Part shown: positions 4,212 through 60,046 of the stretch, piece after piece | Position numbering within the stretch: position 1 is the first letter of the stretch | Layout of the letters: the number at the start of each line of letters is the position of its first letter | Assembly (NCBI GenBank): GCA_001029755.1 | Contig: CP011214.1 | Coordinates: 711,258-775,257 of the forward strand | DNA from: Candidatus Woesebacteria bacterium GW2011_GWF1_31_35 | Lineage (GTDB): Bacteria > Patescibacteriota > Microgenomatia > UBA8517 | DNA length: 64,000 nt | Direction: 5' to 3' | Notes under the pieces: model-generated | Seen by the model: the letters and a program-made list of their open reading frames with translations, nothing else | Told to the model about the DNA's origin: nothing | The model's database searches: none | Translations under genes and position numbers: made by a program

Positions 4212-4216
4212 TGGAA

Positions 4217-6321: not shown

Positions 6322-6322
6322 A

Positions 6323-7851: not shown

Positions 7852-7862
7852 ATTTATATTGG

Positions 7863-23956: not shown

Positions 23957-24008
23957 TAGATACAAATAGTAAATAATTTTAATTTGTATTTGAGGTATAA
24001 TTATCAAA

Positions 24009-24449
24009 ATGTCAAACGAAAGATTTACTTTACGAGCAGCAGTTTATTTGATACTTCTAAAGGAAGATAAAATATTGCTTTCACGAAGATACAACACAGG
24101 TTGGATGGATGGAAAATATAGTTTGATAGCAGGACACATTGATGGAAATGAATCTGTTGACAAGGCCATGATAAGAGAGTCATGGGAAGAGGCTGGTATT
24201 AAAATTGTCAAAAAAGATTTAAAACCAGCAACAGTACTTCATAGAAAATCATCGGATCAAGAATACATGGATTTCTTTTTTGTTACAAAACAATGGACTG
24301 GTAGACCTACAATTAAAGAGCCTAATAAATGTGATGATATGGATTGGTTTCCACTAAATAATCTCCCTAATAATCTACTCCCCCATATTTTGGAAGCTAT
24401 TAAAAATTATCAAAACAAAACCCCTTTTTCAGAGAGTGGATGGGATTAA
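24009..24449 (+). CDS. NUDIX hydrolase
   Basis: The Nudix box GHIDGNESVDKAMIRESWEEAGI (Gx5Ex7REUxEExGU) is present. This is the only plus-strand gene inside the dcw block. Confidence 0.8.
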   Translation: MSNERFTLRAAVYLILLKEDKILLSRRYNTGWMDGKYSLIAGHIDGNESVDKAMIRESWEEAGIKIVKKDLKPATVLHRKSSDQEYMDFFFVTKQWTGRPTIKEPNKCDDMDWFPLNNLPNNLLPHILEAIKNYQNKTPFSESGWD

Positions 24450-25525
24450 ATATAATCTTCGATTAAATCCACGAGATTTTTAGAAGCAAAAACATCTGGG
24501 CTTACTAAATTAATAGTATTTTTAATAATCTCGGGATAATCACTAATTAACTTACTTATTTCTTCTTCCAATTTTTCTGGTGTCAATTTATCTTGTTGTA
24601 ATATTCTGGCTAAACCCAAACTCTCCATATATTTTGCATTTTCTGTCTGTTCATTATGATAGCTCCAGGGAATTGGAACTAAGATAGAAGGCCTTTTTAA
24701 GGCAATTAATTCTGAAACTGTGTTTGCTCCTGCTCTTGAGATAACTATGTCCGATTTTTCTAATATTGAAAACCATTCAGACGGTTCGGCTTGTCCAATA
24801 TGTAAATATTTTTCATTTACAATTTCTTTAAATTTATTAAAATCTTCATTTCCTGTCTGGTGAATTACAAAATACTTATTCAAAAGACTTTCTAAAATTG
24901 GTTTGACTGCGTTATTAAGCCAAGAAGAACCACGAGAACCACCGGTTATTAAAATTGTTTTAACTTCGAGACTATTAGTTTTTTTTGAAATTTCCAAGAT
25001 ATTTTTATTTATTGGATTCCCAGTTAAAATTAATTTCTCTTTAGGAAAATACTCTTCGCTTGTTTTTCTTGAGATAGCAACTTTTTTAGCAAATTTTGAT
25101 GAAAATATATTAGCCCTACCAGCTGAAGATGTCTGTTCGTGAACAATGACAGGAATTTTTAAAACCCAAGACCAAAATGAGACCAATGATCCAGAAGATC
25201 CCCCTAAAGAAAGCGTTAGATCTGGTTTTATTTTGATAATCAAAAATAAGCTTTGGACAAAACCAAAAGGAATTTTTAATAAAGCTAAAATAGTGTATCT
25301 AGTAAACCTATTTTCTATTTTTCCAGATATTAAATTATAAAATTTGACACCCAGTTTAGGTAAAACTTTATACTCTAAAGATTCAAGTTTATTTCGTTCT
25401 CCTGCATGTTTTCTGCCTACCCAATAAATATCCCAATCTAAATTTCTAGTTTTAATTTCTTCTACAATTGAAAGTCCCGTGGTAGCACCATGACTACCTG
25501 CGAGAAGTAATTTTTTTAGTTTCAT
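24446..25525 (-). CDS. murG: undecaprenyldiphospho-muramoylpentapeptide beta-N-acetylglucosaminyltransferase (MurG, GT28)
   Basis: The N-terminal G-loop LLAGSHGATTG is present along with the C-domain ILITGGSRGS. It sits in the dcw cluster after ftsW. Confidence 0.8.
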   Translation of the reverse strand: MKLKKLLLAGSHGATTGLSIVEEIKTRNLDWDIYWVGRKHAGERNKLESLEYKVLPKLGVKFYNLISGKIENRFTRYTILALLKIPFGFVQSLFLIIKIKPDLTLSLGGSSGSLVSFWSWVLKIPVIVHEQTSSAGRANIFSSKFAKKVAISRKTSEEYFPKEKLILTGNPINKNILEISKKTNSLEVKTILITGGSRGSSWLNNAVKPILESLLNKYFVIHQTGNEDFNKFKEIVNEKYLHIGQAEPSEWFSILEKSDIVISRAGANTVSELIALKRPSILVPIPWSYHNEQTENAKYMESLGLARILQQDKLTPEKLEEEISKLISDYPEIIKNTINLVSPDVFASKNLVDLIEDYI

Positions 25526-26606
25526 ACTTACTTATATTTAATAGTATACCGCAAGACGCTAAAATCATTAAAAGAGAAGTACCACCATATGAGAAAAATG
25601 GTAAAGGAATTCCAGTTAGAGGGGTTAGTGCTGTCATTGAAGAAACGTTTAATAGAATTTGTCCACCAATCCAAGCTGTGATACCAATTGCAAGTATTTT
25701 TGAAAATTGATCAGGTGCACGAGATGCGATTCTAAATGCCTTAAAAACAAAAAAAACAAAAATCGCAATTAAAAGTATTGAACCTATAAAGCCGATTTCT
25801 TCGGAAATTGCTGCAAAAATGGAATCTGTTGCAGCTTCGGGTAAAAACAAATATTTTTGACGTGATTGACCAATTCCAAGACCGAAAAGACCCCCTGATC
25901 CCAATGCAAGTAAAATCTGTCTAATATGATAATCTTTTCCCAAAGGATCTGATGTAACTTTTAAAAAAGTTAATAATCTATCTCTCCTATATGGAGAGGA
26001 AAGAATTAAAGCTCCTACTGAAATTAATCCAATAACTAAAGATCCAAAAAAATATAGAACTGGAACGCCTGCAACAAAAATTTGAGTGATTCCAATAATT
26101 CCAACAACTAAAGTAGTACCTAAATCAGGTTGTAACATAATTAATCCACAGGAAATCGCTAAAGGTATAAAGTAAGAAATTGGTTTTTTAGAAGATTCTG
26201 AGACTCTAGCTAAATATAGCGCTAAGGTGAGTTTTACAATTTCGGAAGGTTGAAAATTAATAAATCCTATTGATATCCAACGTCTGGCTCCAAGTGCTTT
26301 TAAACTTAAGCCGGGGATTAAAACAATCATTAATAAAAATATAGAAATAAAAAATAAAGGGATTGCCAATTTTCTCCAAAAACTATAGTGAATTTTTGAA
26401 GTAATAAGTAATGCAATGATTCCAATTCCTGCCCAAACTATTTGTTGTTTAAAAAAATAGAACTTATCATTAAAAAAATTTAAGGCTTGCGGAGCTGAAA
26501 TATCAGCCACAAAAACAAGACCTAAAATAACTAATGTAATAATTGTATAAAATAACGTTTTATCAAAAGGAAGCTTTGGTTTTTGAAGTGTAAATTTTCT
26601 TCGCAT
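25494..26606 (-). CDS. ftsW: SEDS-family peptidoglycan glycosyltransferase FtsW
   Basis: RRWISIGFINFQPSEIVKL and ATDSIFAAISEEIGFIG are SEDS motifs. It lies between mraY and murG. Confidence 0.8.
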   Translation of the reverse strand: MRRKFTLQKPKLPFDKTLFYTIITLVILGLVFVADISAPQALNFFNDKFYFFKQQIVWAGIGIIALLITSKIHYSFWRKLAIPLFFISIFLLMIVLIPGLSLKALGARRWISIGFINFQPSEIVKLTLALYLARVSESSKKPISYFIPLAISCGLIMLQPDLGTTLVVGIIGITQIFVAGVPVLYFFGSLVIGLISVGALILSSPYRRDRLLTFLKVTSDPLGKDYHIRQILLALGSGGLFGLGIGQSRQKYLFLPEAATDSIFAAISEEIGFIGSILLIAIFVFFVFKAFRIASRAPDQFSKILAIGITAWIGGQILLNVSSMTALTPLTGIPLPFFSYGGTSLLMILASCGILLNISKYETKKITSRR

Positions 26607-26619
26607 TTTTATTAATACG

Positions 26620-27675
26620 TTAAATTGTAGCTAACCAGAGTCCAAAAATAGCTAAAACAATACCTGCAAGCCAGGCTCTCATTACAATTTTAGGTTCTTC
26701 CCAACCAATTGCTAAAAATGTGTGATGAATAGGAGCTAACTTAAAAATTGGTTTCTTTAAAATTTTCCAACCTAATATTTGAATTGCTGATGAAGTTATT
26801 TCTAATACAAATATTCCTCCAATCACAACTAAAGCTATAATACTACCTGTTAATAAGCCTACAACAGCAAGGGTGGCCCCAAATGAAAGTGCACCACTAT
26901 CCCCTAGCCAAATTCTTGCAGGATAAGTATTAAAGTATAAAAATGCAATTAAAGCGCCAATCCAAAGGGCAATAAAAAGAGAAAGTGGAGTATCTAAACT
27001 CCCTGCAGCTATTACTCCAAAAGCAATTAAACAAATCATCAAAAGACCAGGCGCTAACCCATCCAATCCATCTGTAATATTAAATGCATTTGTGAAAGAA
27101 ACTATTACAAACGCAGCAAACGGAACATACCAAATCCCTAGATCAAGTGTTCTTCCTATTATTGGAATATGTAATATATTAACTCCAAGAGACTTATACA
27201 TAACAAAAGAAATTATTCCAGCTAAAACCCATTGGGCAATAAATTTTTGTCTTCTGGTTAAACCAAAAGCTAAGCCTAAAACTCCCTTTGTGGGCTTTCC
27301 TAACATTTTTATATAATCATCAAGAAGCCCTAATAGTCCAAATGAAATAAAAGTAAAGAAAATAATAAAAAGTTCGATTCTTAAATTATATGCAGTCTGA
27401 ACAATAACTCCTAGATATGAACTAATTGGAAATAAAATTGCAAAAAGGAGAGTAACAACTAGAATAATTAAGACTCCTCCACCTACAGGAGTTCCTGCTT
27501 TAATGTCATGCAATTTATCAAAAAGTGGAATTTTCCCATCTCTAGGAGCCTCTTTTTTTCTAGTAAATTTAATTTTATAAAGAAAGTCAATAAAAGGAAC
27601 AACTAATGTAGAAGTTATCAAAAATGAAAAAAGAATAAGTCCCAAGGCAAGTGGTAAAAAGTTATTTGTACCCAT
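26620..27675 (-). CDS. mraY: phospho-N-acetylmuramoyl-pentapeptide transferase
   Basis: NAFNITDGLDGLA is the MraY/WecA signature, with about 10 TM helices and a conserved His-rich loop (PIHHTF). Confidence 0.9.
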   Translation of the reverse strand: MGTNNFLPLALGLILFSFLITSTLVVPFIDFLYKIKFTRKKEAPRDGKIPLFDKLHDIKAGTPVGGGVLIILVVTLLFAILFPISSYLGVIVQTAYNLRIELFIIFFTFISFGLLGLLDDYIKMLGKPTKGVLGLAFGLTRRQKFIAQWVLAGIISFVMYKSLGVNILHIPIIGRTLDLGIWYVPFAAFVIVSFTNAFNITDGLDGLAPGLLMICLIAFGVIAAGSLDTPLSLFIALWIGALIAFLYFNTYPARIWLGDSGALSFGATLAVVGLLTGSIIALVVIGGIFVLEITSSAIQILGWKILKKPIFKLAPIHHTFLAIGWEEPKIVMRAWLAGIVLAIFGLWLATI

Positions 27676-27687
27676 ACTGTATGAAAA

Positions 27688-28794
27688 TTATACCAGCTTA
27701 TCTATAAGCTTGTCTAAACCAATTGATCTTGAACCTTTAATTAATACATAAGTATCTTTTGAAAGAAGAGGTAAAAGGATTGATAGTACTTCCTTCTGGT
27801 CGTTAACTAAAAAGGTTTTACTTTTTGATTTTTTTACCTCATCTATTAAATACCTTGAAAGAATACCAACTCCTATCACTACATCAAATTTTGACTTTGA
27901 AACTTCTTTACCCACTCTTCTATGTTCCCCTTCTTCTAACTTTCCAAGTTCCAACATATCTCCCAAAACTGCAATCTTTTTATTATTTCCTGCTAATTTA
28001 TTAAAAACCCTTAAGGTAGAAAGAGTAGCTTCTGGATTACTATTATATGAATCGTCTAAAATGATAGCACCAGATTGATGTTGAAATTGAAATAATCTAT
28101 GTTTTGGATTTTGATAAGTTTTCAATCCTTTATCTATTAAATCATTTGATACTTTTAATATCTCTGCAACCTTTTTTGCCGTATTTGAATTTTGTATAGT
28201 TGGATCTACATTAGTATCAAAATAATAAACCTTTGATTTAGCTAATTTAGCCATATCTTTAGTTAATATATTTGAAGAATTTAACACTGCAAAACCATTT
28301 TCAGGTAAACTTGAAATTAATTTTCCTTTTTCTCCAGCCACTCCTTTTTCGTCACCAAAAAACTCTGTGTGGGTTGGAAAAACATTAGTAACAACTCCAA
28401 TTATTGGTCTAACCAACCAAAGATAAAAATCCATTTCATGAGGATATTCAACTCCCATTTCTAAAATTAGATATTTTGTATCTATGAAACATTTTAGAAT
28501 TGTAGATGGAATATTAAATACTGAATCAATATTTTCTTTTGACCAAACAGTATTTCCTTTAAGTTTTAAAATCCCTGCAAGCATTTCTTTGGTGGTGGTT
28601 TTTCCTGCGCTACCTGTAATACCAATAACTGTTAGACCAAAATAATTTTGCAAAATATATACATATAACTTGGCAATTCTTCTTTTGATTGGATGAAAAA
28701 ACAAATCTAGAATTACATTTTTTAGTCCAGATTTTAACCTTAGATGAACGAATGGGAGGTGTGGTCCAACCAATGATTGAAAATATTTTTTCAT
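27688..28794 (-). CDS. murF: Mur ligase, probably UDP-MurNAc-tripeptide--D-Ala-D-Ala ligase (MurF), with a short N-terminal domain
   Basis: The P-loop GITGSAGKTTTKEMLAGIL, a Mur ligase middle domain and a C-terminal domain are present. It is assigned as murF by elimination, since murC, murD and murE are identified elsewhere, and from its position before mraY. Confidence 0.65.
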   Translation of the reverse strand: MKKYFQSLVGPHLPFVHLRLKSGLKNVILDLFFHPIKRRIAKLYVYILQNYFGLTVIGITGSAGKTTTKEMLAGILKLKGNTVWSKENIDSVFNIPSTILKCFIDTKYLILEMGVEYPHEMDFYLWLVRPIIGVVTNVFPTHTEFFGDEKGVAGEKGKLISSLPENGFAVLNSSNILTKDMAKLAKSKVYYFDTNVDPTIQNSNTAKKVAEILKVSNDLIDKGLKTYQNPKHRLFQFQHQSGAIILDDSYNSNPEATLSTLRVFNKLAGNNKKIAVLGDMLELGKLEEGEHRRVGKEVSKSKFDVVIGVGILSRYLIDEVKKSKSKTFLVNDQKEVLSILLPLLSKDTYVLIKGSRSIGLDKLIDKLV

Positions 28795-28806
28795 TTTGTT
28801 TATATA

Positions 28807-29574
28807 TTATAGCTCTACTCTTTCAATTTTTTTTGATATATCTTGTCCTAAAAATAGGGCTGCTGTTTTGACAAATCTTTCATTTACATCAGTTAAAAAA
28901 TATATATCACTACCTACTTTATCATTAATATTTCTATCTGATTTTATTACATATTCATAAATAACTTTTGAAATCTCTTCAGCTGGATCAACCAATTTAA
29001 TTTTTTCTCCTAAATATCTTTTTATCTGATTTTTAATAAGTGGATAGTGGGTACAACCTAAAATTAATGTATCTATTTTTCCTTTAAAAACTAAAAAGTA
29101 CCTATCAATAAATAAATTAATTTCAGGTCCTTCTATAAATCCTTCTTCAATAAGTGGAACCAACATTGATGCATGAGCTCGAAGAGAAACTTCTTTATAT
29201 GAGCTACTATTAATAGTAGCTCTTGTGCCAACAACACCAATTTTTCCGGATTTTGTAACCTCTAAAGCTTTTTTAATTGCTGGGTCAATAACACCAAAAA
29301 CCGGTACGTTAGAATTCTTCTTTACAATATCTAATGCAAGTGAAGAAACAGTGTTACAAGCAACAACAATACAAGAAACATTTTTTGATAGTAAAAATAA
29401 AGTGTCTTCCTTTGCAAACTTTTCAATTGTTTCTTTACTTCTGGTTCCATATGGAACCCTCGCGGTATCTCCTAAATAAATTAAACTTACATTTGGTAGA
29501 AGTTTTTTGATTTCTTTTACAACTGTTAGACCACCAAGACCTGAATCAAATACTCCAATTATGAAAGGTTCCAC
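28807..29574 (-). CDS. murI: glutamate racemase
   Basis: IGVFDSGLGGLTV...YLGDTARVPYG is the MurI N-terminal signature and a second Cys region CNTVSS is present. Confidence 0.85.
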   Translation of the reverse strand: MEPFIIGVFDSGLGGLTVVKEIKKLLPNVSLIYLGDTARVPYGTRSKETIEKFAKEDTLFLLSKNVSCIVVACNTVSSLALDIVKKNSNVPVFGVIDPAIKKALEVTKSGKIGVVGTRATINSSSYKEVSLRAHASMLVPLIEEGFIEGPEINLFIDRYFLVFKGKIDTLILGCTHYPLIKNQIKRYLGEKIKLVDPAEEISKVIYEYVIKSDRNINDKVGSDIYFLTDVNERFVKTAALFLGQDISKKIERVEL

Positions 29575-30803
29575 ACTGCCTCCTTAAATTTATTTCCTCT
29601 ATCTTTATAATTTAAAAACATATCGAAAGAAGCTGCAGCAGGAGACAAAATTACTACACCATCTTTTTGTGTTATTCCAAATGCTTTTTCAACAATTTTA
29701 TCAATACTAGAAGTTCCCAAATCTATAATCTTTCCTTTAAATTTAGCATCAACAAGAGCTTTTTTAATTTGATTTCGAATTAGACCAATAAGGATAATAT
29801 TTTTGCAATTTTTTCTTTTTGAAATAATCTTGCCTAATTCTAGGTAATCTAAACCTTTATCAGACCCTCCTAATATTAATGTTTCATCCTCAGTAAATGA
29901 ATTAATAGCTGCAATAGTTGATTGTGGTCCTGTTGCGAAAGAATCATTATAAAATTTAATATCTTTAAACTTTCTAACAAATTCCAATCTATGTTCTAAA
30001 CCTTTAAAATTTTTAACTACTTCAAGGATTATTTTTTCATTAATATTTAAAACTTTAGAAACTGAAACTGCTGCTGCTATATTTTCTAAATTATGTTCTC
30101 CTCTTAAGATTAAATCTTTTTTAAATTCATTTTTTAATGTCTTTTTGGAAAAATACATAATATTTGCCTTTGTTTTTCTTGCAAAACTAGAAGAGACTTT
30201 ATATTCCTTATTTATAATTGCCCAATCTGAAGTATTTTGATATTTAACAATATTTTTCTTAGCTTCTATATATTCTTCTTTACTTTCATGCCAATCTAAA
30301 TGATCTAAAGTAATATTTAAAATAACTGCGATATCAGGACTAACCGGAAGATCAATTAATTGAAATGAGGATATTTCCATAACAACATAAGAACTACTTT
30401 TCAATTTAGGAAGTAATTCTAAAAGAGGTTTACCAATGTTTCCTCCCAAAAATACATCAAACTTTGCTTTTTTAAGTATTTCATAAATTAAGGTAGAAGT
30501 TGTTCCTTTGCCTTTTGTACCGGTAACTGCAATAACTTTTCCATTAAATTCATCAAAGAAAATATGTGTTGGAGTAGTTATTCTAATTCCATTTTCATGA
30601 ACTTTAATTAATTCCTTTTTATAAGGATAAATACCAGGCGAGCGAACTATTAAATCAAACTTTTCTAAGTTTGATAAATAATTTTTATCAAATTTTTGAT
30701 CTAATATAGTAACATAGCTTCCTTTATCTTTTAAGAATTTTTCACAATCTTGTCCTTCAAGACCATATCCAATTATTGCAACTTTTTTATCTTTATAATT
30801 CAT
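29559..30803 (-). CDS. murD: UDP-N-acetylmuramoylalanine--D-glutamate ligase
   Basis: The N-terminal Rossmann segment KVAIIGYGLEGQDCEKFL and the P-loop VIAVTGTKGKGTTSTLI are present in a 414-aa protein. Confidence 0.8.
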   Translation of the reverse strand: MNYKDKKVAIIGYGLEGQDCEKFLKDKGSYVTILDQKFDKNYLSNLEKFDLIVRSPGIYPYKKELIKVHENGIRITTPTHIFFDEFNGKVIAVTGTKGKGTTSTLIYEILKKAKFDVFLGGNIGKPLLELLPKLKSSSYVVMEISSFQLIDLPVSPDIAVILNITLDHLDWHESKEEYIEAKKNIVKYQNTSDWAIINKEYKVSSSFARKTKANIMYFSKKTLKNEFKKDLILRGEHNLENIAAAVSVSKVLNINEKIILEVVKNFKGLEHRLEFVRKFKDIKFYNDSFATGPQSTIAAINSFTEDETLILGGSDKGLDYLELGKIISKRKNCKNIILIGLIRNQIKKALVDAKFKGKIIDLGTSSIDKIVEKAFGITQKDGVVILSPAAASFDMFLNYKDRGNKFKEAVWNLS

Positions 30804-31642
30804 TTTTGTAATTTTTTAATTGATAAATTATCTGACAAATAATTATTTTTAGTAATTACACTTCTACCAAGTTCCTTCTCCGTCTTTTTTCTTGCATATC
30901 CAGCAACAGATCCACCACGATTTGCGACTTTTTTGTTTTGAATAAACCCCTTTGGTTTTTCAGTTGTTGAAATTTCAGTAGTTACTCGTTCCCCAAGCAT
31001 GGTAAAAATTAATTCTAGATCTGTCATATTATCTCTTAAGTTAATTTTTGTTTTATTTGGTATATTTTTAAGTTTTCTATATTCACTAGGGGTAATACCA
31101 AATGTAGCTTTTGATATTTCCGCTGTCAGAATTGCATAATCTAACTTATTTTTAATACCTCTCTCTTTCCATTCATCAGTTAAATTTTGACGAATTGCCA
31201 TTCCCCTTAAACGTTTATCTATCCAATCTTTGGGATACCCTTTTTGTTCATAAATACTTTTCATTCTTTCCTGTGCAAGCTCAGGATCTTCAATTTCCTG
31301 AATACGATCATTACCCACACTTGCTAACCACCGTTTGAAAGGCTCTGCATTTGGAGACGGAATTGATTGAATTATTCGAAATAAACCTTCAGTATCTGAA
31401 CAATCAGTCATCCTCATTTTATTATCATCGGCTTTTAACTTGAACTGTCGACAAATTGTCGATAGTTGTGCACCATCATTACTATTCATCCTAATTTTCA
31501 TCTTAAACCAATAATCACTTGAATCTGTACTTTTTGTTAAAATCGAAACCACATCAATAACAGAAAAATACCACTCATTTTTGTACCATTTTCGTCTTAT
31601 TTGTTTATTTTGAAAAATTACTAGACTACTATTTCTCTTCAT
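30800..31642 (-). CDS. Bro-N domain / DinD-like (DNA-damage-inducible protein D family) protein
   Basis: The N-terminus SLVIFQNKQIRRKWYKNEWYFSVIDVVSIL fits the Bro-N pattern (F..IR....E.WF.A.DVA.LL), and the C-terminal half aligns by eye to E. coli DinD (KRLRGMAIRQNL...DYAIL...LRDNMTDLELIFTMLGE). It has 4-nt overlaps with both the murC/B stop and the murD start. Confidence 0.55.
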   Translation of the reverse strand: MKRNSSLVIFQNKQIRRKWYKNEWYFSVIDVVSILTKSTDSSDYWFKMKIRMNSNDGAQLSTICRQFKLKADDNKMRMTDCSDTEGLFRIIQSIPSPNAEPFKRWLASVGNDRIQEIEDPELAQERMKSIYEQKGYPKDWIDKRLRGMAIRQNLTDEWKERGIKNKLDYAILTAEISKATFGITPSEYRKLKNIPNKTKINLRDNMTDLELIFTMLGERVTTEISTTEKPKGFIQNKKVANRGGSVAGYARKKTEKELGRSVITKNNYLSDNLSIKKLQK

Positions 31643-33774: not shown

Positions 33775-34775
33775 TTAAGTTTTAGAATTGTATTTGCTAA
33801 TTTAAATGGATCATGTCTAAATAAATGTTCGTTTTTTAGATATCTTGATACGTTTTCATTTATTATTTTCATATTGGGAGCTATTTTTTTGCATTTTTCC
33901 TTATCTACTATTACCAAGTTTTGACCTTCTTCTTTATAAACCTTAAGGATCTCTTTGTCTAAATGATTTTTATTAACTATTAAATAATCGATAGCTTTAT
34001 TATTACCTAAATAAAAAAGAAATGATTTCAAAAAATCTGAAGCTTTGAAATTATCTGTTTCTCCTTCTTTTGTGGCTAAATTTAACACAATGATCAACTT
34101 AGCTTTTGATTTAATTATTGCTTCAGTTACACCTTCAACTAATAAATGAGGCAGGATACTTGTATAAAGATCTCCTGGAGAAAATACAATTTTATCTGCA
34201 TCTTTAATTGCATTTAAAACATCTTCATTGCTATCCACTCTTGAATCAAAATAAATTCTTATAATTCTGTCATTTGGATCAAAATTTTTATCTTTAACTC
34301 TTGTGTCAATGTTTTTTTCTCCAATTACAATATTACCTTTTTTGGTTTCTGCAACAAGTTGAACATTCGTTATAGTTGCGGGTACAATTTTAGCCATAAT
34401 TCTAAAAAGTTCTCTTTCCGCTACTATTCCCCTGTCTTGACCTGAATAAATATGATCTAATCTTGCTGTTATTAAATTACCAATTGAATGACCTTTTAAA
34501 GGTCCAGATGATTCTTCTAACCTATCATCAAAAAGTCTTTGAGCTACTTTTCTTTGATTTTCATCTTCCATTAAGGCAAGCATACAACGCCTTAAATCTC
34601 CAGGAGGCAAAACTCCCAATTCTGTTCTTAATCTTCCAGAGCTACCACCACTATCCCAAGTACTAGCAACAGCTGTTATTAATTTTGTTTCGTTTAAATC
34701 TCTAAGTCCATCAAGAAGATGAAATTGACCAGTACCACCTCCAAAAGTAACTATTTTCTGTTTATATTTAGCCAT
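33771..34775 (-). CDS. yvcK: YvcK/CofD-like gluconeogenesis-factor family protein (UPF0052)
   Basis: FGGGTG, DSGGSSGRLR, PPGDLR, GHSIGNL, SPGDLYTS and GETDNFKASD match the B. subtilis YvcK signature blocks in the same order. Confidence 0.85.
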   Translation of the reverse strand: MAKYKQKIVTFGGGTGQFHLLDGLRDLNETKLITAVASTWDSGGSSGRLRTELGVLPPGDLRRCMLALMEDENQRKVAQRLFDDRLEESSGPLKGHSIGNLITARLDHIYSGQDRGIVAERELFRIMAKIVPATITNVQLVAETKKGNIVIGEKNIDTRVKDKNFDPNDRIIRIYFDSRVDSNEDVLNAIKDADKIVFSPGDLYTSILPHLLVEGVTEAIIKSKAKLIIVLNLATKEGETDNFKASDFLKSFLFYLGNNKAIDYLIVNKNHLDKEILKVYKEEGQNLVIVDKEKCKKIAPNMKIINENVSRYLKNEHLFRHDPFKLANTILKLK

Positions 34776-36723
34776 TTATTCTTTTACTCATTTTTCTTTC
34801 TGCATTTTGTAATTGCTCTGGCGTATTAATTCCCTGCCATTCATTTGCATCAGGTAATTTATAAACCGAAACTTTTTGATTTTGGCTTAAAGCAAACTTA
34901 ATCAAATCAGTTAAATAATATTCTCCTGTCACAGGACTTTTGTTAATCTTATTAATATTTTTTCTTAACCAGTTAGATTTAAAAACATAAAGACCATCAT
35001 TTACTTCTTTTACCTTTTTTTGAGATTCATTTGCATCTTTTTCTTCAATAATTCCAATTAAATTATCATTTTTATCCCTAATAACTCTTCCTAATCCAAA
35101 TGGATTTTCTTGAATTAAACTCACGAATGTTAAAGAAGCATTTGAGTTTTTATGTGTTTCAATAACATTTTTGATTGTGGCTGGCTTATAAAAAGCACTA
35201 TCATCACCATATATTACTAAAATATCAATATATTTTAAATCTATTTTCTTTAAAGCTTTTAAAACAGAATTACCCGTGCCTAGAGTAGTTTCTTGAATAG
35301 CGTAATTGCATTCTTTCGATATTTCTCTTAATACTAAATTCCTTTTATATCCAACAACGGGAACTAAATTAATAACCCCTGCATTTCTTAAGTTTTCCAT
35401 CGAATATGAAATCATTGGTCTATCACAAATATTATGTAGAACTTTCGGCAAATCTGACTTCATCCTTGTTCCTCGACCTGCTGCAAGGATAACTCCAGCC
35501 AAATCTTTATAACCATTCAAAATATTTTTGACAAACTTTTGATCACTCCAAGGATGTTCAAAACCCCCATAAGCCATAGTTATTTCATGACCTTTTCCAC
35601 AAAAAACTAATGCATCTCCTTTTTTGGCAATCCTAATAGCATATGAAATTGCTTCACCACGTTCAGGAATACAGATATAATTTTTTGCATACTTTTTCAT
35701 TTGTTTTAAAATATCAAAGATATTTTCACTTCGAGGATCTTCTGCGGTTAAAATTGAAATGTCAGCAATTTCACCTGAAATCTTACCCATTTTAGATCTC
35801 TTTTTAATATCTCTTTCTCCAGCGCATCCAAATACTGAAATTAACCTCCCTTTGGTAATAGTTTTTAAATAACCTAAAACTGCTTCTAAAGAATCAGGTG
35901 TGTGAGCAAAATCAACAAAAATTTTAATACCAAGAGAATTTTCTATTTCTTCAAGTCTTCCGATTGGAAGTTTAAATGAATTAAGTGCGTTTTTAGATTC
36001 TTTTTCAGAAATCCCAAGTTTTTCACATACTTCAATTGCTGTCTGGGCATTTATATTATTAAAATCACCTTCCAATATTTTTAACTTTGTAGACTTTGGA
36101 CTAATAATTTGAATTTTGCAGGATTTTAAAAATGACATCTTAGTATTTTTATAATTTTTAAAAGTTTTATGATAATCAAGGTGTTCCGGAGCAATGTTAG
36201 TTAATACCCCAATGTCAAACTTGATTCCTGCAATCCTGCCTTGTTCAATTCCATGTGATGAAACTTCTAAAATTACATAATTAAATCCTTTATCAACAAA
36301 ACCCTTTAACATTTTATTTAAGGTAATTACGTCAGGAGTAGTGACATGATATCCAGGAACTGAAATAGAACTTATAAGCCCTGCCTTTTTACCTAATTTA
36401 GTTAAAATATGGTAGATTAAATGACAGGTTGTTGTCTTTCCTTTGGTTCCAGTTACTCCAATTATGGTTAATTTACTTGAAGGATTTTTGTAATATTCTG
36501 AGGCTAATTCTCCTAATTTTTCTCTCGAATTTGAAACTTTTATATAATTTACACCAGAAGCTATTTTGATATTCTCTCCGCTATGATATTCAGTTTCGCC
36601 ATAAATAATTTTTGCCCCGTTTTTAATAGCCTCATCTATATGATCATGTCCATCAGAAATTTGGCCTTTAATTGCTACAAATGTATCCCCAGATTTTATC
36701 AACCTTGAATCAAATGAAATCAT
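34768..36723 (-). CDS. murE: fused MurE (UDP-MurNAc-L-Ala-D-Glu--diamino-acid ligase) plus a GlmU-type N-terminal sugar-1-phosphate uridylyltransferase domain (no LbH acetyltransferase domain)
   Basis: Residues 1 to about 405 are MurE, with DSRLIKSGDTFVAIKG, IIGVTGTKGKTTTCHLI and an EDPR variant of the DNPR motif. Residues 406 to 651 begin LAGVILAAGRGTRMKSDLPKVLH, which is almost identical to the GlmU pyrophosphorylase signature, and end GINTPEQL. No hexapeptide repeats follow. Confidence 0.8.
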   Translation of the reverse strand: MISFDSRLIKSGDTFVAIKGQISDGHDHIDEAIKNGAKIIYGETEYHSGENIKIASGVNYIKVSNSREKLGELASEYYKNPSSKLTIIGVTGTKGKTTTCHLIYHILTKLGKKAGLISSISVPGYHVTTPDVITLNKMLKGFVDKGFNYVILEVSSHGIEQGRIAGIKFDIGVLTNIAPEHLDYHKTFKNYKNTKMSFLKSCKIQIISPKSTKLKILEGDFNNINAQTAIEVCEKLGISEKESKNALNSFKLPIGRLEEIENSLGIKIFVDFAHTPDSLEAVLGYLKTITKGRLISVFGCAGERDIKKRSKMGKISGEIADISILTAEDPRSENIFDILKQMKKYAKNYICIPERGEAISYAIRIAKKGDALVFCGKGHEITMAYGGFEHPWSDQKFVKNILNGYKDLAGVILAAGRGTRMKSDLPKVLHNICDRPMISYSMENLRNAGVINLVPVVGYKRNLVLREISKECNYAIQETTLGTGNSVLKALKKIDLKYIDILVIYGDDSAFYKPATIKNVIETHKNSNASLTFVSLIQENPFGLGRVIRDKNDNLIGIIEEKDANESQKKVKEVNDGLYVFKSNWLRKNINKINKSPVTGEYYLTDLIKFALSQNQKVSVYKLPDANEWQGINTPEQLQNAERKMSKRING

Positions 36724-36726
36724 ATT

Positions 36727-37980
36727 TTAATCTTCTCTTTTAATGGAAGCTCCAAGAGAAGTCAAGCGGTTTTGGATATCTTCGTAACCTCTATTTACTA
36801 CTTCTACATTTTCAATTGTACTAGTTCCTTCAGCTACCATGGCTGCTAGTATTACTGAAATTCCAGCTCTTATATCTTTACAAAAGAGTCTGTCTGAAAT
36901 TAATTTTGTAGGACCTGACACAATTACCCTATGAGGATCAGCAATTAAAATATTAGCTCCCATTCCTATTAAATCATCTACAAAAAACATTCTCCATTCA
37001 TACATCCAATCGTGACATAGAATTGTACCTTCAGTTTGTGTGGCAAGAACTATAAACGGACTCATTAAATCTGTTGGAAACCCTGGCCATGGACGGGTTT
37101 GAAACTTTCTTCTTTGGGCTTTTAATTTTGAAGGTAGAATAACTAAACTTTCTTTTTCAATCTCATATTTAATACCCATATTACCTAGATAATTTAGAAT
37201 CATATGATAATTATTTATATTAAAATCATTAATTTTTACTTTCCCTCCAGTTATTGCTGAAGCTATTGCAAATGTACCACCTTCAATGTGATCAGGCATT
37301 ACTTTATGTTCAGCTCCATGTAAGTTTCCTCCAGAGCAAACTAAAGTATTAGTTCCAATTCCTGAAATTTTAGCTCCCATCTTACACAAAAACTTGGCCA
37401 AATCTTCTACATGAGGTTCTGCTGCTGCATCCTCAATTATTACCTCTTCATTCATTGAAGATGCCATAATAAGTCCCATTTCAGTCGCTGTAACCGAAGC
37501 TTCTTCTAAAAATACTCTACCAGATAATCTTTTATCCCAAGAAAGATAAAACTTTCCATCTTTTCTTTCAAAATTTACCCCCAGTTTTTGCATTAAATTA
37601 AAATGGGTATCAAGAAGTCTATCTCCTATTTGATCCCCCCCAGGAGGAGTTATTACTGCCCTTCCGAAACGAACTAAAAGCGGAGCTGCTAAAACCACAG
37701 ACGCGCGAAGTTTGGCACATAAATCAGAATCTGGTTCAAATGAATTTAATCCCGATGGATCAATTTCAACCACATTTTTCTCAAAAGTAACTTTTGCTCC
37801 CAATTTTTCAATAATTTGCAAAATTACTCTAACATCTGAAATATCAGGAACATTAGTTAAAACAGATTTTTCTGTTGAGGCTAAACAGGCAGGGATAAGT
37901 TTAAGTGCAGAATTTTTGTTTCCAGAAAGTTTTATTTCACCTTCTAGTTTATTTCCTCCTTTAATTAAAAACTTTGCCAT
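36727..37980 (-). CDS. murA: UDP-N-acetylglucosamine 1-carboxyvinyltransferase, with Asp in place of the fosfomycin-target Cys
   Basis: MAKFLIKGGNKLEGEIKLSGNKNSALKLI is the MurA N-terminus. The loop PPGGDQIGDRLLDTH aligns to E. coli PGGCTIGARPVDLH, so Cys115 is replaced by Asp. The track start at 38043 is TTG and would overlap ftsI by 47 nt, so I used the ATG at 37980. Confidence 0.85.
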   Translation of the reverse strand: MAKFLIKGGNKLEGEIKLSGNKNSALKLIPACLASTEKSVLTNVPDISDVRVILQIIEKLGAKVTFEKNVVEIDPSGLNSFEPDSDLCAKLRASVVLAAPLLVRFGRAVITPPGGDQIGDRLLDTHFNLMQKLGVNFERKDGKFYLSWDKRLSGRVFLEEASVTATEMGLIMASSMNEEVIIEDAAAEPHVEDLAKFLCKMGAKISGIGTNTLVCSGGNLHGAEHKVMPDHIEGGTFAIASAITGGKVKINDFNINNYHMILNYLGNMGIKYEIEKESLVILPSKLKAQRRKFQTRPWPGFPTDLMSPFIVLATQTEGTILCHDWMYEWRMFFVDDLIGMGANILIADPHRVIVSGPTKLISDRLFCKDIRAGISVILAAMVAEGTSTIENVEVVNRGYEDIQNRLTSLGASIKRED

Positions 37981-37996
37981 GTAAGTAATATTATAC

Positions 37997-39664
37997 CTAA
38001 TTTTCAGGCTGAATGCCAAAATAGTTAAAAAGATCCTTTGCAATCGAATACCAAAGAGGAGCCGCGGTTTCTGAAGCCCACTGAGAACTTTGTGGCTCTT
38101 TTAAAGTCACCAGCATAATAAATTTAGGATTATTAGCTGGAGCAAAACCTACAAAGCTAGCAATTGTTTTTTCAGCATCATAATGACCAGAAATTGGAAT
38201 TTGAGCAGTTCCAGTTTTACCAGCAACACTAAACCCTTTTAAATTTGTCCATTTAGATTCTCCATAGGAAGCAGCATCAACCATTATTGCAGTCATTTTT
38301 TGAGAAGCATCTTCTGAAATAATTTTTTCTTTTGTAAATGAATTATTGTTTTCAACTACCTTAGGAGTTATTAGATATCCTCCATTGGCAATAACCGAGG
38401 CTGCTCGAATAATTTGAATCGGGGTTGTGGCAATTCCTTGTCCGAATGATGCTGTGACTAAATCTACAATATTCCACGTCCATTTTTTACGTAAAGAAAT
38501 ATTAGATTCTCCTTGTAAATCAATGTTTGTTGCTTTTCCAATTCCAAATTTATCCAAATAATCATAAAGTAAGTTATTTCCTAATTTTTGTGCAACAAAA
38601 CTCATTCCAACATTGTCTGAATGAACAATTACATCTCTCATTGTAGAATCTGGATAATATTTTTTATCCCACGTTTCAATAAAATATTTATCTACTTTTA
38701 AAGGACCTGTACATATATCACAAATTGTGTCGGGTTTTACTACCTTAGCATCAAGTGCAGCTGCCATAACTACAATTTTAAATACAGAACCAGGTTCAAA
38801 TGTATCAGAAATTACTGGATTCCTATAAAGAGAACCATCAAATTCATTATATTTCGCTGGATCATATGATGGATATGAACTCATTCCTAATATTTTTCCT
38901 GTAAAAGGATCCATCACTACAACAGATCCCTCTTTTGCCCCATACTTTTCAATCCCTTCTTTTAGTTTTTCCTCAATTGAATTTTGGATTCTTTTATCAA
39001 TAAAGGTAATAAGATCAGTTCCTGCCAAAGAAGTCATTTCAGAAACTCCACCAGAAAGAAGAGGAACGCCTCTTAAATCTTTTTCTCTTTGAATATAACC
39101 ACTTTTTCCAGAAAGCAGAATATCATAAAATCCCTCTAATCCAAAATAACCGGTATCGTTTCCCTCGTCATTTTTGCCTACAAAACCTAAAAGTTGTGCG
39201 GAAGAAGATCCTTCTGGATAATATCTATTTTCTTCAGTTTCAAAACCAAGCCCAGTAATTCTTAAGTTTTCAATTTTTTCTTTTATATCAGCAGTAATTT
39301 TATGTCTTATTGGAACCCAAACTACACCGTCCCTATTTAGTATTTTTTCTATCCTATCAATTTCAATAAGAATATCTTCTTGTGGAACTAAAAAAGGTGC
39401 AATTAAATTAGCAATTTCGTTTGTGGGTTTGGATAATTTAGGTAATTCCGCAAAAAGTAACCAGTTAGTGCGTGTTACAGCCAACCAAGTACCATCATTT
39501 GCATAAATGTTTCCTCTTGAAGCCTCAATTTTCTTTGAACCGGAGTATTGTAAACTTGCTTCCTGACTTAATTCTTTACCTTTAACTATTTGCCAATAAA
39601 ATAATCTAACTGAGACCGAAGCAAAAAATAGAAAAAATACAAAAGCAGCAATTTTAAGTCGCAT
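37997..39664 (-). CDS. ftsI: penicillin-binding protein, class B transpeptidase (FtsI/PBP2-type)
   Basis: An N-terminal TM helix, a dimerisation domain and the transpeptidase motifs SVFK (SxxK), HSDN (SxN) and KTGT are present. Confidence 0.85.
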   Translation of the reverse strand: MRLKIAAFVFFLFFASVSVRLFYWQIVKGKELSQEASLQYSGSKKIEASRGNIYANDGTWLAVTRTNWLLFAELPKLSKPTNEIANLIAPFLVPQEDILIEIDRIEKILNRDGVVWVPIRHKITADIKEKIENLRITGLGFETEENRYYPEGSSSAQLLGFVGKNDEGNDTGYFGLEGFYDILLSGKSGYIQREKDLRGVPLLSGGVSEMTSLAGTDLITFIDKRIQNSIEEKLKEGIEKYGAKEGSVVVMDPFTGKILGMSSYPSYDPAKYNEFDGSLYRNPVISDTFEPGSVFKIVVMAAALDAKVVKPDTICDICTGPLKVDKYFIETWDKKYYPDSTMRDVIVHSDNVGMSFVAQKLGNNLLYDYLDKFGIGKATNIDLQGESNISLRKKWTWNIVDLVTASFGQGIATTPIQIIRAASVIANGGYLITPKVVENNNSFTKEKIISEDASQKMTAIMVDAASYGESKWTNLKGFSVAGKTGTAQIPISGHYDAEKTIASFVGFAPANNPKFIMLVTLKEPQSSQWASETAAPLWYSIAKDLFNYFGIQPEN

Positions 39665-39696
39665 TTTAAATAATATAATCTTAGAAAATTTAAAAA

Positions 39697-39975
39697 TTAA
39701 CGAACAGGAAGTTTGGCAAAACCACTATCAACCGAAAAATAATAAACTCTAGTAGGTTTAGCAAAACCCAATTCTTGTGCAATTTTTTGATTACTCTTTT
39801 CAGAATTTTGACTAAATATCCCTTCCGAAAGATTCATCTTTTGTGTAGAAGCCGTCTCTAATTCATCTTCTAATTTCGCAATTTCAGCACCTCTTCCTGC
39901 CTGTTCTATTCCTAAGAATACTAAAGATGCAAAAAGTACTAAATTAATTCCTAATATTATTTTTAATTTTTTCAT
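39697..39975 (-). CDS. ftsL: FtsL/DivIC-like cell division protein
   Basis: The 92-aa protein has a single TM helix followed by a short coiled coil (EIAKLEDELE). It sits between rsmH and ftsI as in canonical dcw clusters. Confidence 0.5.
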   Translation of the reverse strand: MKKLKIILGINLVLFASLVFLGIEQAGRGAEIAKLEDELETASTQKMNLSEGIFSQNSEKSNQKIAQELGFAKPTRVYYFSVDSGFAKLPVR

Positions 39976-40021
39976 AATTTTTTATTTCAAGCCCTGCTTT
40001 TAATGTAATCACAAGCTCCGC

Positions 40022-40855
40022 TTATAATTTCTTTTCTAAAATATATAACTTTGCACTCCTTGATTTTTGATTATTAAAAATTTCTTCCTGACTTGGTAAA
40101 ACTACTTCACCTTTACCTTTAAAAAAATCTTTAACAATTCTTTCTTCACCCGAATGAAAAGTTATTACTAAAAGTCTCCCACCATTTTCTAAAAGGTTAA
40201 AAGCTTTTGGTAATACCTCTTCTAAATTTTCAAGTTCACTATTAACTGCAATTCTTAAGGCTAACATGGGTAGTGTTGCTGGATTTAAACTTCGTTTATG
40301 TGGCAAATCTTCTAAACATAAATTTAATTCTCCAACTGTTGTAATAGGCCTAACATTAACTATTCTTTCAGCAATTTTTTTTGCGTTAGCAAAATTAACA
40401 ATCTTTGCAAAAAGATTTGTCAATTGAGTTTTATCTAAAACATTTAATAAATCTGATGCCTTCACCCCTTGTGAGTTAGGATTAAGTCTCATATCAAGAG
40501 CTTGACTAGAATCACTAAATGAAAACCCTCTATTGTCTTCTTTTAGATGAATGTTTGAAACTCCTAAGTCAAGTAAAATTCCGGTAACTTTACTAAAATT
40601 ATTTTCTTTAGCAATTTTATCTATATTGGTAAAATTTTCTAATACAAATTTGCCCGTTTCTTTTAATCTATCTTTAGCAATTGCTAAAATTTTAGGATCT
40701 CTTTCAATCCCCAGGACTTTACCACCTAAATTAATAATTGCTTGACTATGACCACCTGTTCCTAAAGTTGCGTCTATTATTTGTGAACTTTTATTAATGT
40801 GCAAACTCTTTATAACTTCTTTAACCATTACCGACTCGTGGTAATTATTTTTCAT
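40022..40855 (-). CDS. rsmH: 16S rRNA (cytosine1402-N4)-methyltransferase
   Basis: YHESVMVKEVIKSL...IIDATLGTGGHSQAI is the RsmH/MraW signature. The gene is second in the dcw cluster. Confidence 0.9.
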   Translation of the reverse strand: MKNNYHESVMVKEVIKSLHINKSSQIIDATLGTGGHSQAIINLGGKVLGIERDPKILAIAKDRLKETGKFVLENFTNIDKIAKENNFSKVTGILLDLGVSNIHLKEDNRGFSFSDSSQALDMRLNPNSQGVKASDLLNVLDKTQLTNLFAKIVNFANAKKIAERIVNVRPITTVGELNLCLEDLPHKRSLNPATLPMLALRIAVNSELENLEEVLPKAFNLLENGGRLLVITFHSGEERIVKDFFKGKGEVVLPSQEEIFNNQKSRSAKLYILEKKL

Positions 40856-41279
40856 TTTTACTTAAATTTTCAATATACTCTTTAGTTGTTTGTGCCAATT
40901 TAGTTGATTTCTCGTCCCAAACTGTCTTTGGCCAAACCTCAACTCTGTCTATTAATCCTACAAAACAAATTTCTTTTTCAAATTTTGCATACTCAGCTAA
41001 TATTTCAGGGATTATGATTCTACCTTGCTCATCCGGCTTTTGCTCAAAGGCAGATCCTAAAATAAACCTTTCGATATCTCTAACCCCCAAATCTCTTGCT
41101 CTTTTACCTCCTGTTAGTCTAGTTGATAGATTTTCCCAAAAATCTGAGCTTACTAAAATTAGACAATCCTCATACCATTTGGCTAAGATAGGGTTATCTC
41201 CTAATTCATTTATAAATTTTTTAGGTACCGCGACTCTACGTCTGTCGCTTAATATTCCCAAATAGGTTCCTATTAACAT
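40845..41279 (-). CDS. mraZ: transcriptional regulator MraZ
   Basis: MLIGTYLGILSDRRRVAVPKKFINEL aligns with the MraZ N-terminus (MFMGEYxHxIDxKGRxxVPAKFRExL) and the protein carries two DXXXR-type repeats. The track start at 41306 is GTG and the internal ATG at 41279 fits the family N-terminus. Confidence 0.8.
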   Translation of the reverse strand: MLIGTYLGILSDRRRVAVPKKFINELGDNPILAKWYEDCLILVSSDFWENLSTRLTGGKRARDLGVRDIERFILGSAFEQKPDEQGRIIIPEILAEYAKFEKEICFVGLIDRVEVWPKTVWDEKSTKLAQTTKEYIENLSKNEK

Positions 41280-41387
41280 AAATTTACTTTCTTGGGCAGG
41301 AACCACTTTTCACCACTACAAACCATTTTGATATCTTTTCACAACGATGTCAAGAGGTATTTCACGAAGAATTATGTAACTTAAGTA
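41280..41387 (-). promoter_or_regulatory. dcw-cluster leader holding a TTGACA -35-like hexamer and three direct GTGAAA(A) repeats, a candidate MraZ operator/promoter
   Basis: The minus-strand sequence reads CTTCGTGAAATACCTCTTGACATCGTTGTGAAAAGATATCAAAATGGTTTGTAGTGGTGAAAAGTGG. The GTGAAA copies are spaced 23 and 29 bp apart and the last copy contains AAAGTGG. Confidence 0.3.
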
Positions 41388-47197: not shown

Positions 47198-47230
47198 ATT
47201 ATTAATTCATTGTATATCAATGGAGAAAAA

Positions 47231-47884: not shown

Positions 47885-47892
47885 AAGGCAAT

Positions 47893-51134: not shown

Positions 51135-51146
51135 CTTTTTTTTAAT

Positions 51147-53199: not shown

Positions 53200-53206
53200 A
53201 TTTTAA

Positions 53207-57977: not shown

Positions 57978-57985
57978 ATTTAAAA

Positions 57986-59104: not shown

Positions 59105-59113
59105 TATAATAAT

Positions 59114-59724: not shown

Positions 59725-59774
59725 ATTTAGATTGTATCATTGACTAAAAATTAAGTCAGTAATAATATGAATTC

Positions 59775-60044: not shown

Positions 60045-60046
60045 TT

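Follow-up and report, generated by a model that had tools for sequence, protein, structure and literature searches.

The dcw cluster of a Candidatus Woesebacteria genome: a lineage-specific layout with fused mur genes and a variable ddl slot

Is the unusual order of the genes for cell division and the cell wall (dcw genes) of Candidatus Woesebacteria GW2011_GWF1_31_35 peculiar to this genome, the product of faulty assembly or the usual form of the cluster in its lineage, and how is D-Ala-D-Ala supplied when the cluster has no ddl gene? These questions are raised by a 64-kb stretch of contig CP011214.1, referred to here as the window, which belongs to the genome, of about 826 kb, of a tiny groundwater bacterium and provides the numbering used below. 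A preliminary description of this DNA had presented the dcw cluster as complete but strongly rearranged, with additional and fused members. Open reading frames (ORFs) were listed over the window, and the gene calls were checked with Pfam and NCBIfam. The cluster is very probably a lineage-specific Woesebacteria variant of the known dcw cluster, in which the absence of ddl reflects a clean deletion common to about half of the relatives.

The ORF listing shows an unbroken minus-strand array from position 41306 to position 24446, in the order mraZ-rsmH-ftsL(like)-ftsI-murA-MurE::GlmU(N-half)-yvcK-MurC::MurB-BroN-murD-murI-murF-mraY-ftsW-murG, with intergenic gaps of -32 to +46 bp among the 15 co-directional genes across 16.8 kb; downstream of murG, an antisense NUDIX gene is followed by ftsQ(like)-ftsA-ftsZ. 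This order, including the recruitment of murA, murI and yvcK into the cluster, had been proposed previously, and the Pfam and NCBIfam checks upheld it for each gene, ftsL and ftsQ being the weaker calls. The concern that the Mur ligase assignments might be overturned is not borne out, as they hold under NCBIfam equivalog models, each ligase having its own family as the top match by a wide margin. The murE, murF, mraY, murD, ftsW, murG and murC genes all lie on the minus strand, and the description of the cluster as one co-directional block is correct from mraZ to murG but not for ftsQAZ, which lie beyond the antisense NUDIX gene. The coordinates given earlier stand overall, apart from the starts of mraZ (probably 41279), murA (37980) and ftsQ (near 23959). 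The exact 651-aa MurE::GlmU fusion protein (AKM83648.1; the FtsZ of the same cluster is AKM83635.1) is present in 87 index blocks and was found on 38-40 contigs from ENA, JGI, Logan and NCBI assemblies, the longest of which is 826,104 bp long; two of the contigs, one of 252 kb from ENA and one of 434 kb from the Rifle aquifer (JGI), have the same gene order.

The comparison with relatives was based on a scan of one genome per species, giving 80 loci with 10-kb flanks, in which ORFs were labelled by BLASTP against the window proteins, together with accessory genes identified with Pfam. The synteny counts given here come from 43 Woesebacteria-type loci. The order common to these 43 loci is hisS-hyp223-mraZ-rsmH-ftsL-ftsI-murA-[yvcK-(glmS)]-murE(::glmU-N)-[yvcK], continuing with murC(::)murB-murD-murI-[ddl-(alr)]-murF-mraY-ftsW-murG-ftsQ-ftsA-ftsZ, and murA directly follows ftsI in 29 of 30 loci. 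The cluster does differ from the canonical form, as had been claimed, but the layout is conserved in the Woesebacteria rather than being a rearrangement peculiar to this genome. Chloroflexota loci from the same scan have the canonical order murF-mraY-murD-ftsW-murG-murC-murB-ddl-ftsA, indicating that the labelling recognizes the standard layout, and Daviesbacteria loci display yet another arrangement. The canonical internal order murE-murF-mraY-murD-ftsW-murG-murC-(murB)-ddl is not encountered in the window. By comparison with the canonical clusters of E. coli and B. subtilis (PMC8871954), the mraZ-rsmH-ftsL(like)-ftsI head with its putative MraZ boxes, the murF-mraY and ftsW-murG pairs and the ftsQ(like)-ftsA-ftsZ tail are the same, and murA and murB are members of the cluster, as they are in the longest form known. 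The differences are that murA comes straight after ftsI, murE is separated from murF, murC/murB and murD precede murF-mraY, murI, yvcK and a GlmU half have been added, ddl is absent, and a Bro-N gene and the antisense NUDIX gene are inserted.

The slot in which ddl would be expected is empty. In the window, murI and murF are separated by a 12-bp junction (28795-28806), at the position where 15 relatives have ddl, with or without alr. A Pfam scan of all the ORFs of 100 aa or more in the 64-kb window detected no ATP-grasp/Ddl, alanine racemase or GlmS domain, and tblastn searches of the window with the Ddl (two types), Alr, GlmS and FemAB proteins of relatives yielded nothing, not even a remnant, in agreement with the previous statement that the cluster has no ddl. 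A weak tblastn match to Ddl on the antisense strand of murE (35348-35482, E = 0.001) was judged to be due to chance. Among the 33 loci assessable at this junction, 15 have a typical ddl of about 345 aa between murI and murF and 18 have no ddl in the slot; the typical Ddl proteins are 45-75% identical to each other. In six of the 15 loci, ddl is followed by alr (Pfam on two representatives, BLASTP for the others), and loci L010 and L032 have kept alr with no ddl in the slot. A module encoding an alpha/beta-hydrolase, a DegT aminotransferase and a FemAB-family protein adjoins murF in 11 of the 18 ddl-less loci (L008, L009, L011, L026, L027, L033, L035, L036, L041, L042 and L046; the femAB gene of L035, where the locus ends, is unlabelled) and was never found alongside a typical ddl in the other 15 loci (Fisher p = 1.7e-4, uncorrected for phylogeny). 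Both ddl and the FemAB module are lacking from the window and from loci L017, L021, L025, L028, L029 and L034. When relatives are ranked by mean identity, the nearest ones are found in both states, L023 (72%) having ddl and L021 and L029 (68%), as well as L017, lacking it, which points to a loss that is derived here and recurrent in the lineage. On this comparison of loci, the missing ddl is best described as a derived, clean deletion from a known slot that varies among relatives.

Given that murF, ftsI and every other step are intact, the pathway most likely continues to receive D-Ala-D-Ala. We consider it fairly probable that it comes from a ddl gene elsewhere in the genome, uptake being a less likely source. 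Such a location is plausible, because a second type of ddl occurs outside dcw clusters. Loci L003 and L019, two of the 18 without a typical ddl in the slot, have a divergent ddl of about 393 aa, with a convergent, divergent murF and a hydrolase gene, inside the dcw cluster. The divergent Ddl (L003:14383-16985, L019, L083-L086) is 28-35% identical to typical Woesebacteria Ddl; its cassette includes a convergent gene for a MurF-like Mur ligase of about 457-474 aa and an alpha/beta-hydrolase gene, and an identical divergent Ddl protein has been found in at least three unrelated contexts outside dcw clusters, which suggests that the ddl-murF cassette may be a mobile module.

The principal alternative is that the cell is entirely without a D-Ala-D-Ala ligase and an alanine racemase, and scavenges D-Ala-D-Ala or another dipeptide from its host or community. 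Supply from outside the cell seems unlikely, although several observations speak for it: the deletion is clean and without remnant, alr and glmS, which are present in the clusters of relatives, are also missing from the window, the acetyltransferase half of GlmU is absent, the 18 related loci mentioned above have no ddl in the slot either, and no Ddl match was tied to the 826-kb contig among the matches listed. These searches cover the listed matches only, however, and cannot show absence; the retention of alr without a slot ddl in L010 and L032 suggests that ddl can sit elsewhere, the second Ddl type is found outside dcw clusters in Patescibacteria, and murF and the ftsI transpeptidase gene are intact and conserved. 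The searches themselves were of three kinds. With a profile built from 12 typical Woesebacteria Ddl proteins, there were at least 120 near-equal matches, and none of those listed could be linked to the 826,104-bp contig. For the divergent Ddl of L003, a close relative, no match linked to this contig was present among the matches listed, which is not evidence of absence. The Ddl of the closest relative, compared with JGI metagenomes, gave nothing on the 434-kb Rifle contig among the matches listed, the patterns being of low complexity.

A second question concerns the nature of the domain fused to MurE. The 651-aa ORF (34768-36723, minus strand) consists of a MurE domain at residues 1-400 (35524-36723; TIGR01085, 405 bits; DAP-type NF001126, 398 bits for a cut-off of 373; PDB MurE, E = 2e-68) and a GlmU N-terminal uridyltransferase domain at residues 405-651 (34768-35511), which aligns with GlmU positions 2-241 (PRK14354, E = 1.5e-70). 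The uridyltransferase signature LAAGRGTRMKSDLPK is intact at about residues 412-426, fitting L-x2-G-x-G-T-x-M-x4-P-K, and further GlmU motifs follow downstream (QE..LGTG, YGDD, EEKD and YYLTD). The GlmU match stops at about residue 241, where the helical arm and the LbH domain would start (NCBIfam, PDB), and neither an LbH acetyltransferase beta-helix nor a Hexapep match was found in the ORF with Pfam and NCBIfam, indicating a uridyltransferase-only module rather than a full GlmU. The murE::glmU fusion proposed initially is, thus, real, but its glmU part corresponds to the uridyltransferase half only. The fusion is found in 27 of 40 Woesebacteria loci; murE stands alone in the other 13, usually followed by a separate gene for a 412-419-aa protein with NTP_transferase and LbH domains. 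In the Daviesbacteria loci L053, L061, L064 and L077, the N-terminal half of GlmU is apparently fused to the N-terminus of MurC (BLASTP labelling only), so the uridyltransferase-only module seems to have been joined to different Mur ligases across Microgenomates lineages.

It could be argued that the nucleotidyltransferase fused to MurE acts on another sugar-1-phosphate, as would a MurNAc-1-P uridylyltransferase of the MurU type involved in salvage, given that the domain has the NTP_transferase fold only, without the acetyltransferase half, that murE is followed, in relatives lacking the fusion, by a separate full-length NTP_transferase+LbH gene, and that L032 has both the fusion and the separate gene, such that the two may not be equivalent. 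This seems improbable, because the top NCBIfam and PDB matches are all to GlmU (E = 1e-70 to 1e-43), colinear with residues 2-241, and the signature LAAGxGTRMxSxLPK is present together with the later GlmU motifs. N-terminal fragments of E. coli GlmU retain uridyltransferase activity on their own. The module has the pyrophosphorylase fold and active-site motifs of bifunctional GlmU and of the truncated E. coli enzyme (PDB 1fwy, a 331-residue pyrophosphorylase), but it differs from bifunctional GlmU in having no LbH acetyltransferase/trimerization domain and in being attached to the C-terminus of MurE.

The murC::murB fusion reported at the outset was confirmed by Pfam, NCBIfam and independent assemblies. 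A 711-aa ORF (31639-33774, minus strand) encodes a MurC domain at residues 1-392 (32599-33774; TIGR01082, 331 bits, E = 1e-98) and, after almost no linker, a MurB domain at residues 396-711 (31639-32589; NF000755, 295 bits for a cut-off of 277). Mur_ligase N, M and C domains are followed by FAD_binding_4 and MurB_C, the junction is in frame, and the same ORF is found in independent assemblies. The 120 homologue clusters among the matches listed (51-98% identity) are all full-length fusions, many of them named Woesebacteria, and some are MurC-MurB-MurD triple fusions of about 1,140 aa. In the Woesebacteria loci, murC and murB are fused in 15 and split in 26, and murB and murD are fused in six. 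In L017, L021, L034, L028 and L033, murC has its own stop codon and murB starts at an ATG in another frame, with an overlap of 28-37 nt, which suggests that the fused and translationally coupled states are easily interconverted. The idea that the unusual order or the fusions are artefacts of assembly or sequencing (a chimeric contig or gene-merging frameshifts) might appeal to these separate, overlapping ORFs of close relatives, since a one-base error could mimic a fusion, but it can be set aside as extremely improbable, because identical fused proteins and the same order recur in independent ENA, JGI, Logan and NCBI assemblies, fused orthologues occur in all 120 of the protein clusters listed, and the order is kept in dozens of species-level genomes.

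At its head, the cluster has the canonical form. A putative Pmra promoter (41303-41353, minus strand) comprises TTGACA at 41353-41348 and a -10-like TATCAAAAT around 41334-41325, its function being predicted, and is accompanied by three MraZ-box-like repeats, ATGG, AGTGG and AGTGG (41326-23, 41317-13 and 41307-03, minus strand), the TGG cores of which, at 41325, 41315 and 41305, have an exact 10-bp spacing. The known MraZ operator consists of three direct repeats with a 10-bp period, and the repeats ahead of mraZ appear to match this design. The arrangement TTGACA...GTGAAA...TATCAAAATGG-N6-(A/G)TGG-N6-(A/G)TGG is kept upstream of mraZ in about 25 Woesebacteria loci, and Chloroflexota loci have an analogous GTGGG-N5-GTGGG-N5-GTGGA (of the GTGGG x3 type) upstream. 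The mraZ gene (40845-41279, minus strand; PF02381, E = 5e-18) has an ORF open to GTG 41306, but the layout of the boxes argues for a start at ATG 41279 rather than at the GTG within the third box, and alignment shows that relatives begin at ATG 41279. It is followed by rsmH (mraW), encoding a 16S rRNA m4C methyltransferase (40022-40855, minus strand; PF01795, E = 7e-73), the ftsL-like gene considered below and ftsI, encoding a class B penicillin-binding protein (37997-39664, minus strand; PBP_dimer and Transpeptidase domains, E = 9e-73). Between hisS and mraZ, the window has a gene for a 223-aa membrane-anchored protein without a Pfam match (41388-42059, minus strand; the hyp223 of the common order). 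The hisS-hyp223-mraZ arrangement is kept in most Woesebacteria loci, and this protein may accompany the dcw cluster specifically in this lineage.

Several observations weigh against the reading of this locus as a dcw cluster of known type, intact but for ddl and expressed as a unit. The ftsL-like gene (39697-39975, minus strand) encodes a 92-aa protein in which a single N-terminal membrane helix precedes a coiled coil and which weakly matches DivIC (E = 0.013); it has no significant Pfam match, and a profile compared with the PDB returned coiled coils only. It is kept at the same position in 25 loci, and its tentative assignment is based on position, membrane topology and weak profile evidence. 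The ftsQ-like gene (23222-23959, minus strand; ORF open to 24007) encodes a protein with a single membrane helix and precedes ftsA in 21 loci. It has no Pfam match, and a profile compared with the PDB gave nothing useful. Its profile is colinear with that of Pfam-verified Chloroflexota FtsQ (hhalign E = 0.0013, probability 18%), an AlphaFold model built from the single sequence (pLDDT 48) was unusable, and the tentative ftsQ assignment draws on position, topology and this weak profile match. The scores of MurF and MraY lie just under the NCBIfam cut-offs, in the case of MurF because its N-terminal domain is short. Scans of the cluster for promoters and terminators gave counts at chance level in this AT-rich DNA, and, for this reason, we infer a single operon rather than observing one. 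Finally, no ddl gene was located in the rest of the 826-kb genome among the matches listed.

The remaining cell wall genes are all on the minus strand. The murA gene (36727-37980; TIGR01072, 439 bits for a cut-off of 392.7) has the 417-aa start of the existing gene call. It is followed, after the MurE fusion, by yvcK/glmR, encoding a CofD-family UDP-GlcNAc-binding protein (33771-34775; TIGR01826, 261 bits for a cut-off of 196). In many relatives, a glmS gene (GATase and SIS domains, about 590 aa) adjoins yvcK within the dcw cluster (L012:4585-6357, L011, L014, L018 and L031, and, on the minus strand, L003, L017, L026 and L033), which fits the published link between GlmR and GlmS (PMC7525490, PMC6171935). 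Further downstream are murD (29559-30803; TIGR01087, 349 bits) and murI, encoding glutamate racemase (28807-29574; TIGR00067, 211 bits). The murF gene (27688-28794) encodes a 368-aa protein with TIGR01143 as its top match (251 bits for a cut-off of 288.6); its N-terminal domain is about 47 residues shorter than that of E. coli MurF, residue 45 aligning with E. coli residue 92, and the short form is kept in the orthologues of relatives. The array ends with mraY (26620-27675; TIGR00445, 190.5 bits; PF00953), ftsW of the SEDS family (25494-26606; PF01098, E = 5.5e-103) and murG (24446-25525; TIGR01133, E = 4e-58; GT28 N- and C-terminal domains). The surroundings of murD vary among relatives. An ORF of about 346-357 aa without a Pfam match recurs between murD and murI/alr (L010:13546-14586, L031, L024:13963-15012, L022:8156-9229 and L038), taking the place of ddl beside alr in L010, and a Cu-oxidase_4 (YfiH/PgeF-type) gene lies between murD and murF in the ddl-less loci L017 (14558-15217) and L028.

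Two genes of the window interrupt the layout of the relatives. A gene for a 280-aa Bro-N domain protein (30800-31642, minus strand; PF02498, E = 2.5e-10) lies between murB and murD. It has a full-length match to phrog_15286 (E = 2e-94) and no NCBIfam match at 1e-5, and its identity to genes found on small phage contigs and on plasmids, the plasmid homologues being annotated Bro-N or antirepressor, is 47-52%. At the murB/murD junction, it has counterparts in just two other loci, L028 and L033, with an identity (71-72%) above that of the flanking mur genes there; elsewhere among the relatives, murB adjoins murD or is even fused to it. The gene is best read as a mobile-element-derived insertion, and the protein might bind DNA, a guess from its domain; the earlier label of dinD-like is compatible with the Bro-N domain and the full-length family similarity, although the phrog_15286 match and the plasmid homologues place the gene in a mobile-element family. 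In the close relatives L017 (12105-14561) and L034 (10609-13062), MurD has an N-terminal extension of about 420 residues without a Pfam domain, sitting where the window has the Bro-N gene. The second interruption is the NUDIX hydrolase gene (24009-24449, plus strand; PF00293, E = 1.5e-17), whose 3' end overlaps that of murG by 4 bp and whose start lies 1 bp from the ftsQ ORF. It was found in no sampled relative's locus, and, in most relatives with both genes on the locus, murG is adjacent to or overlaps ftsQ. L017 has an IS200-like transposase gene at this junction. Beyond the NUDIX gene and ftsQ lie ftsA (21952-23214, minus strand; SHS2_FTSA and FtsA domains) and ftsZ (20696-21868, minus strand; Tubulin and FtsZ_C domains).

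Several genes of the window outside the cluster were also noted. A second, rodA-like SEDS-family gene (342 aa; 16082-17110, minus strand) overlaps the end of ileS by 11 bp and is separate from the dcw cluster. The region is flanked by two large sets of surface-polysaccharide/glycosylation genes (45257-61147 and 1361-7878), including DUF4012, Bac_transf, several GT1/GT2/GT4 glycosyltransferases, Wzy_C, PMT_2, a hexapeptide acetyltransferase and a mannose-1-P guanylyltransferase-like gene. Kelch beta-propeller repeats occur together with a C39-like peptidase domain in a 717-aa protein (7863-10016, plus strand). A PIG-L family gene (GlcNAc de-N-acetylase type; 43794-44462, minus strand) lies between recO and hisS, about 2.5 kb upstream of mraZ; any connection to GlcNAc metabolism is speculative.

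These observations suggest a model for the working of the cluster. A canonical promoter ahead of mraZ, with three MraZ boxes, probably drives the packed 15-gene, 16.8-kb unit from mraZ to murG, which would be under MraZ control, and ftsQAZ would be expressed by read-through or from their own promoter. The unit is predicted to encode parts of the divisome and an almost complete cytoplasmic route to lipid II: the GlmU half (GlcNAc-1-P to UDP-GlcNAc), MurA, MurB, MurC, MurD (with D-Glu provided by MurI), MurE (DAP-type), MurF, MraY and MurG. The preliminary description had the route run from UDP-GlcNAc to lipid II; nearly the whole route is indeed present, but, as only the uridyltransferase half of GlmU is encoded, the block already starts with the conversion of GlcNAc-1-P to UDP-GlcNAc. 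YvcK/GlmR may act as a UDP-GlcNAc-sensing regulator (PMC7525490, PMC6171935, PMC10128056). The MurE::GlmU-N and MurC::MurB fusions would most plausibly provide a fixed stoichiometry and favour assembly of a Mur complex in a very small cell, strict substrate channelling being less likely because MurE and GlmU do not catalyse consecutive steps. The features that seem to be derived here are the clean deletion of ddl (and alr) from an ancestral murI-murF slot, the insertion of a mobile-element-type Bro-N gene between murB and murD, and the insertion of an antisense NUDIX gene between murG and ftsQ.

The cluster is an ordinary Woesebacteria version of a well-known system, not a new kind of system. 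A 17-gene form of the dcw cluster has been inferred for the last bacterial common ancestor (PMC8871954). The MurB/C fusion of Verrucomicrobium spinosum (PMC4803751; listed as a class of chimera in PMC10214165) has 770 aa and a linker of about 100 residues, and was thought at the time to be restricted to Verrucomicrobia (PMC4803751). The protein described here matches it in its five Pfam domains and in their order, MurC being N-terminal and MurB C-terminal, but it is 711 aa long with essentially no linker, both its activities are predicted from sequence, it comes from Patescibacteria whereas the literature places such fusions only or mainly in Verrucomicrobia, and the fused and split states alternate among close relatives. 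A survey of Mur chimeras, from which unidentified species were excluded, recognized MurE-MurF, MurC-Ddl, MurC-MurB, MurG-MurC and MurD-FtsW types, and non-sequential chimeras were interpreted as stabilizing the Mur complex and fixing stoichiometry (PMC10214165). MurE::GlmU(N-half) is similar in that a Mur ligase is fused to a cell wall enzyme that is not necessarily responsible for the next step, but it is not among the catalogued types. YvcK belongs to the same CofD-related YvcK subfamily as the GlmR of Bacillus and Listeria (PMC7525490, PMC6171935, PMC10128056), and lies beside glmS in relatives, but its gene is inside the dcw cluster rather than in a yvcJ-glmR-yvcL operon, with no glmS nearby in this genome.

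Megrian et al., in 2022, reportedly surveyed dcw clusters, including those of the candidate phyla radiation (CPR). The literature searched, which did not include that study, contains no description of a MurE::GlmU-N chimera, of the spread or lability of MurC-MurB fusions, or of a variable ddl slot. The source genome has been public for years, and these three points are mildly new.

The dcw cluster, commonly regarded as among the most rigid gene arrays of bacteria, exists in a stable alternative form in a major CPR lineage, with murA, murB, murI, yvcK and a GlmU half brought together in a single unit, which in relatives also takes in glmS, alr and ddl. The occurrence of MurC-MurB beyond Verrucomicrobia and the uncatalogued MurE::GlmU-N both bear on the idea of a cytoplasmic Mur complex. 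The variable slot, occupied by ddl-alr, by nothing or by other modules, offers a handle on auxotrophy for cell wall precursors in ultra-small bacteria, and, should D-Ala-D-Ala prove to be scavenged, the deletion of ddl would mark a real metabolic dependency. A bolder and rather doubtful possibility is that a Woesebacteria sub-lineage has stripped its super-operon of ddl, alr, glmS and the GlmU acetyltransferase half, depends on external D-Ala-D-Ala and GlcNAc, and uses MurE::GlmU-N as part of a compact Mur complex; if this were true, the growth of an ultra-small episymbiont would be coupled to the wall turnover of another cell.

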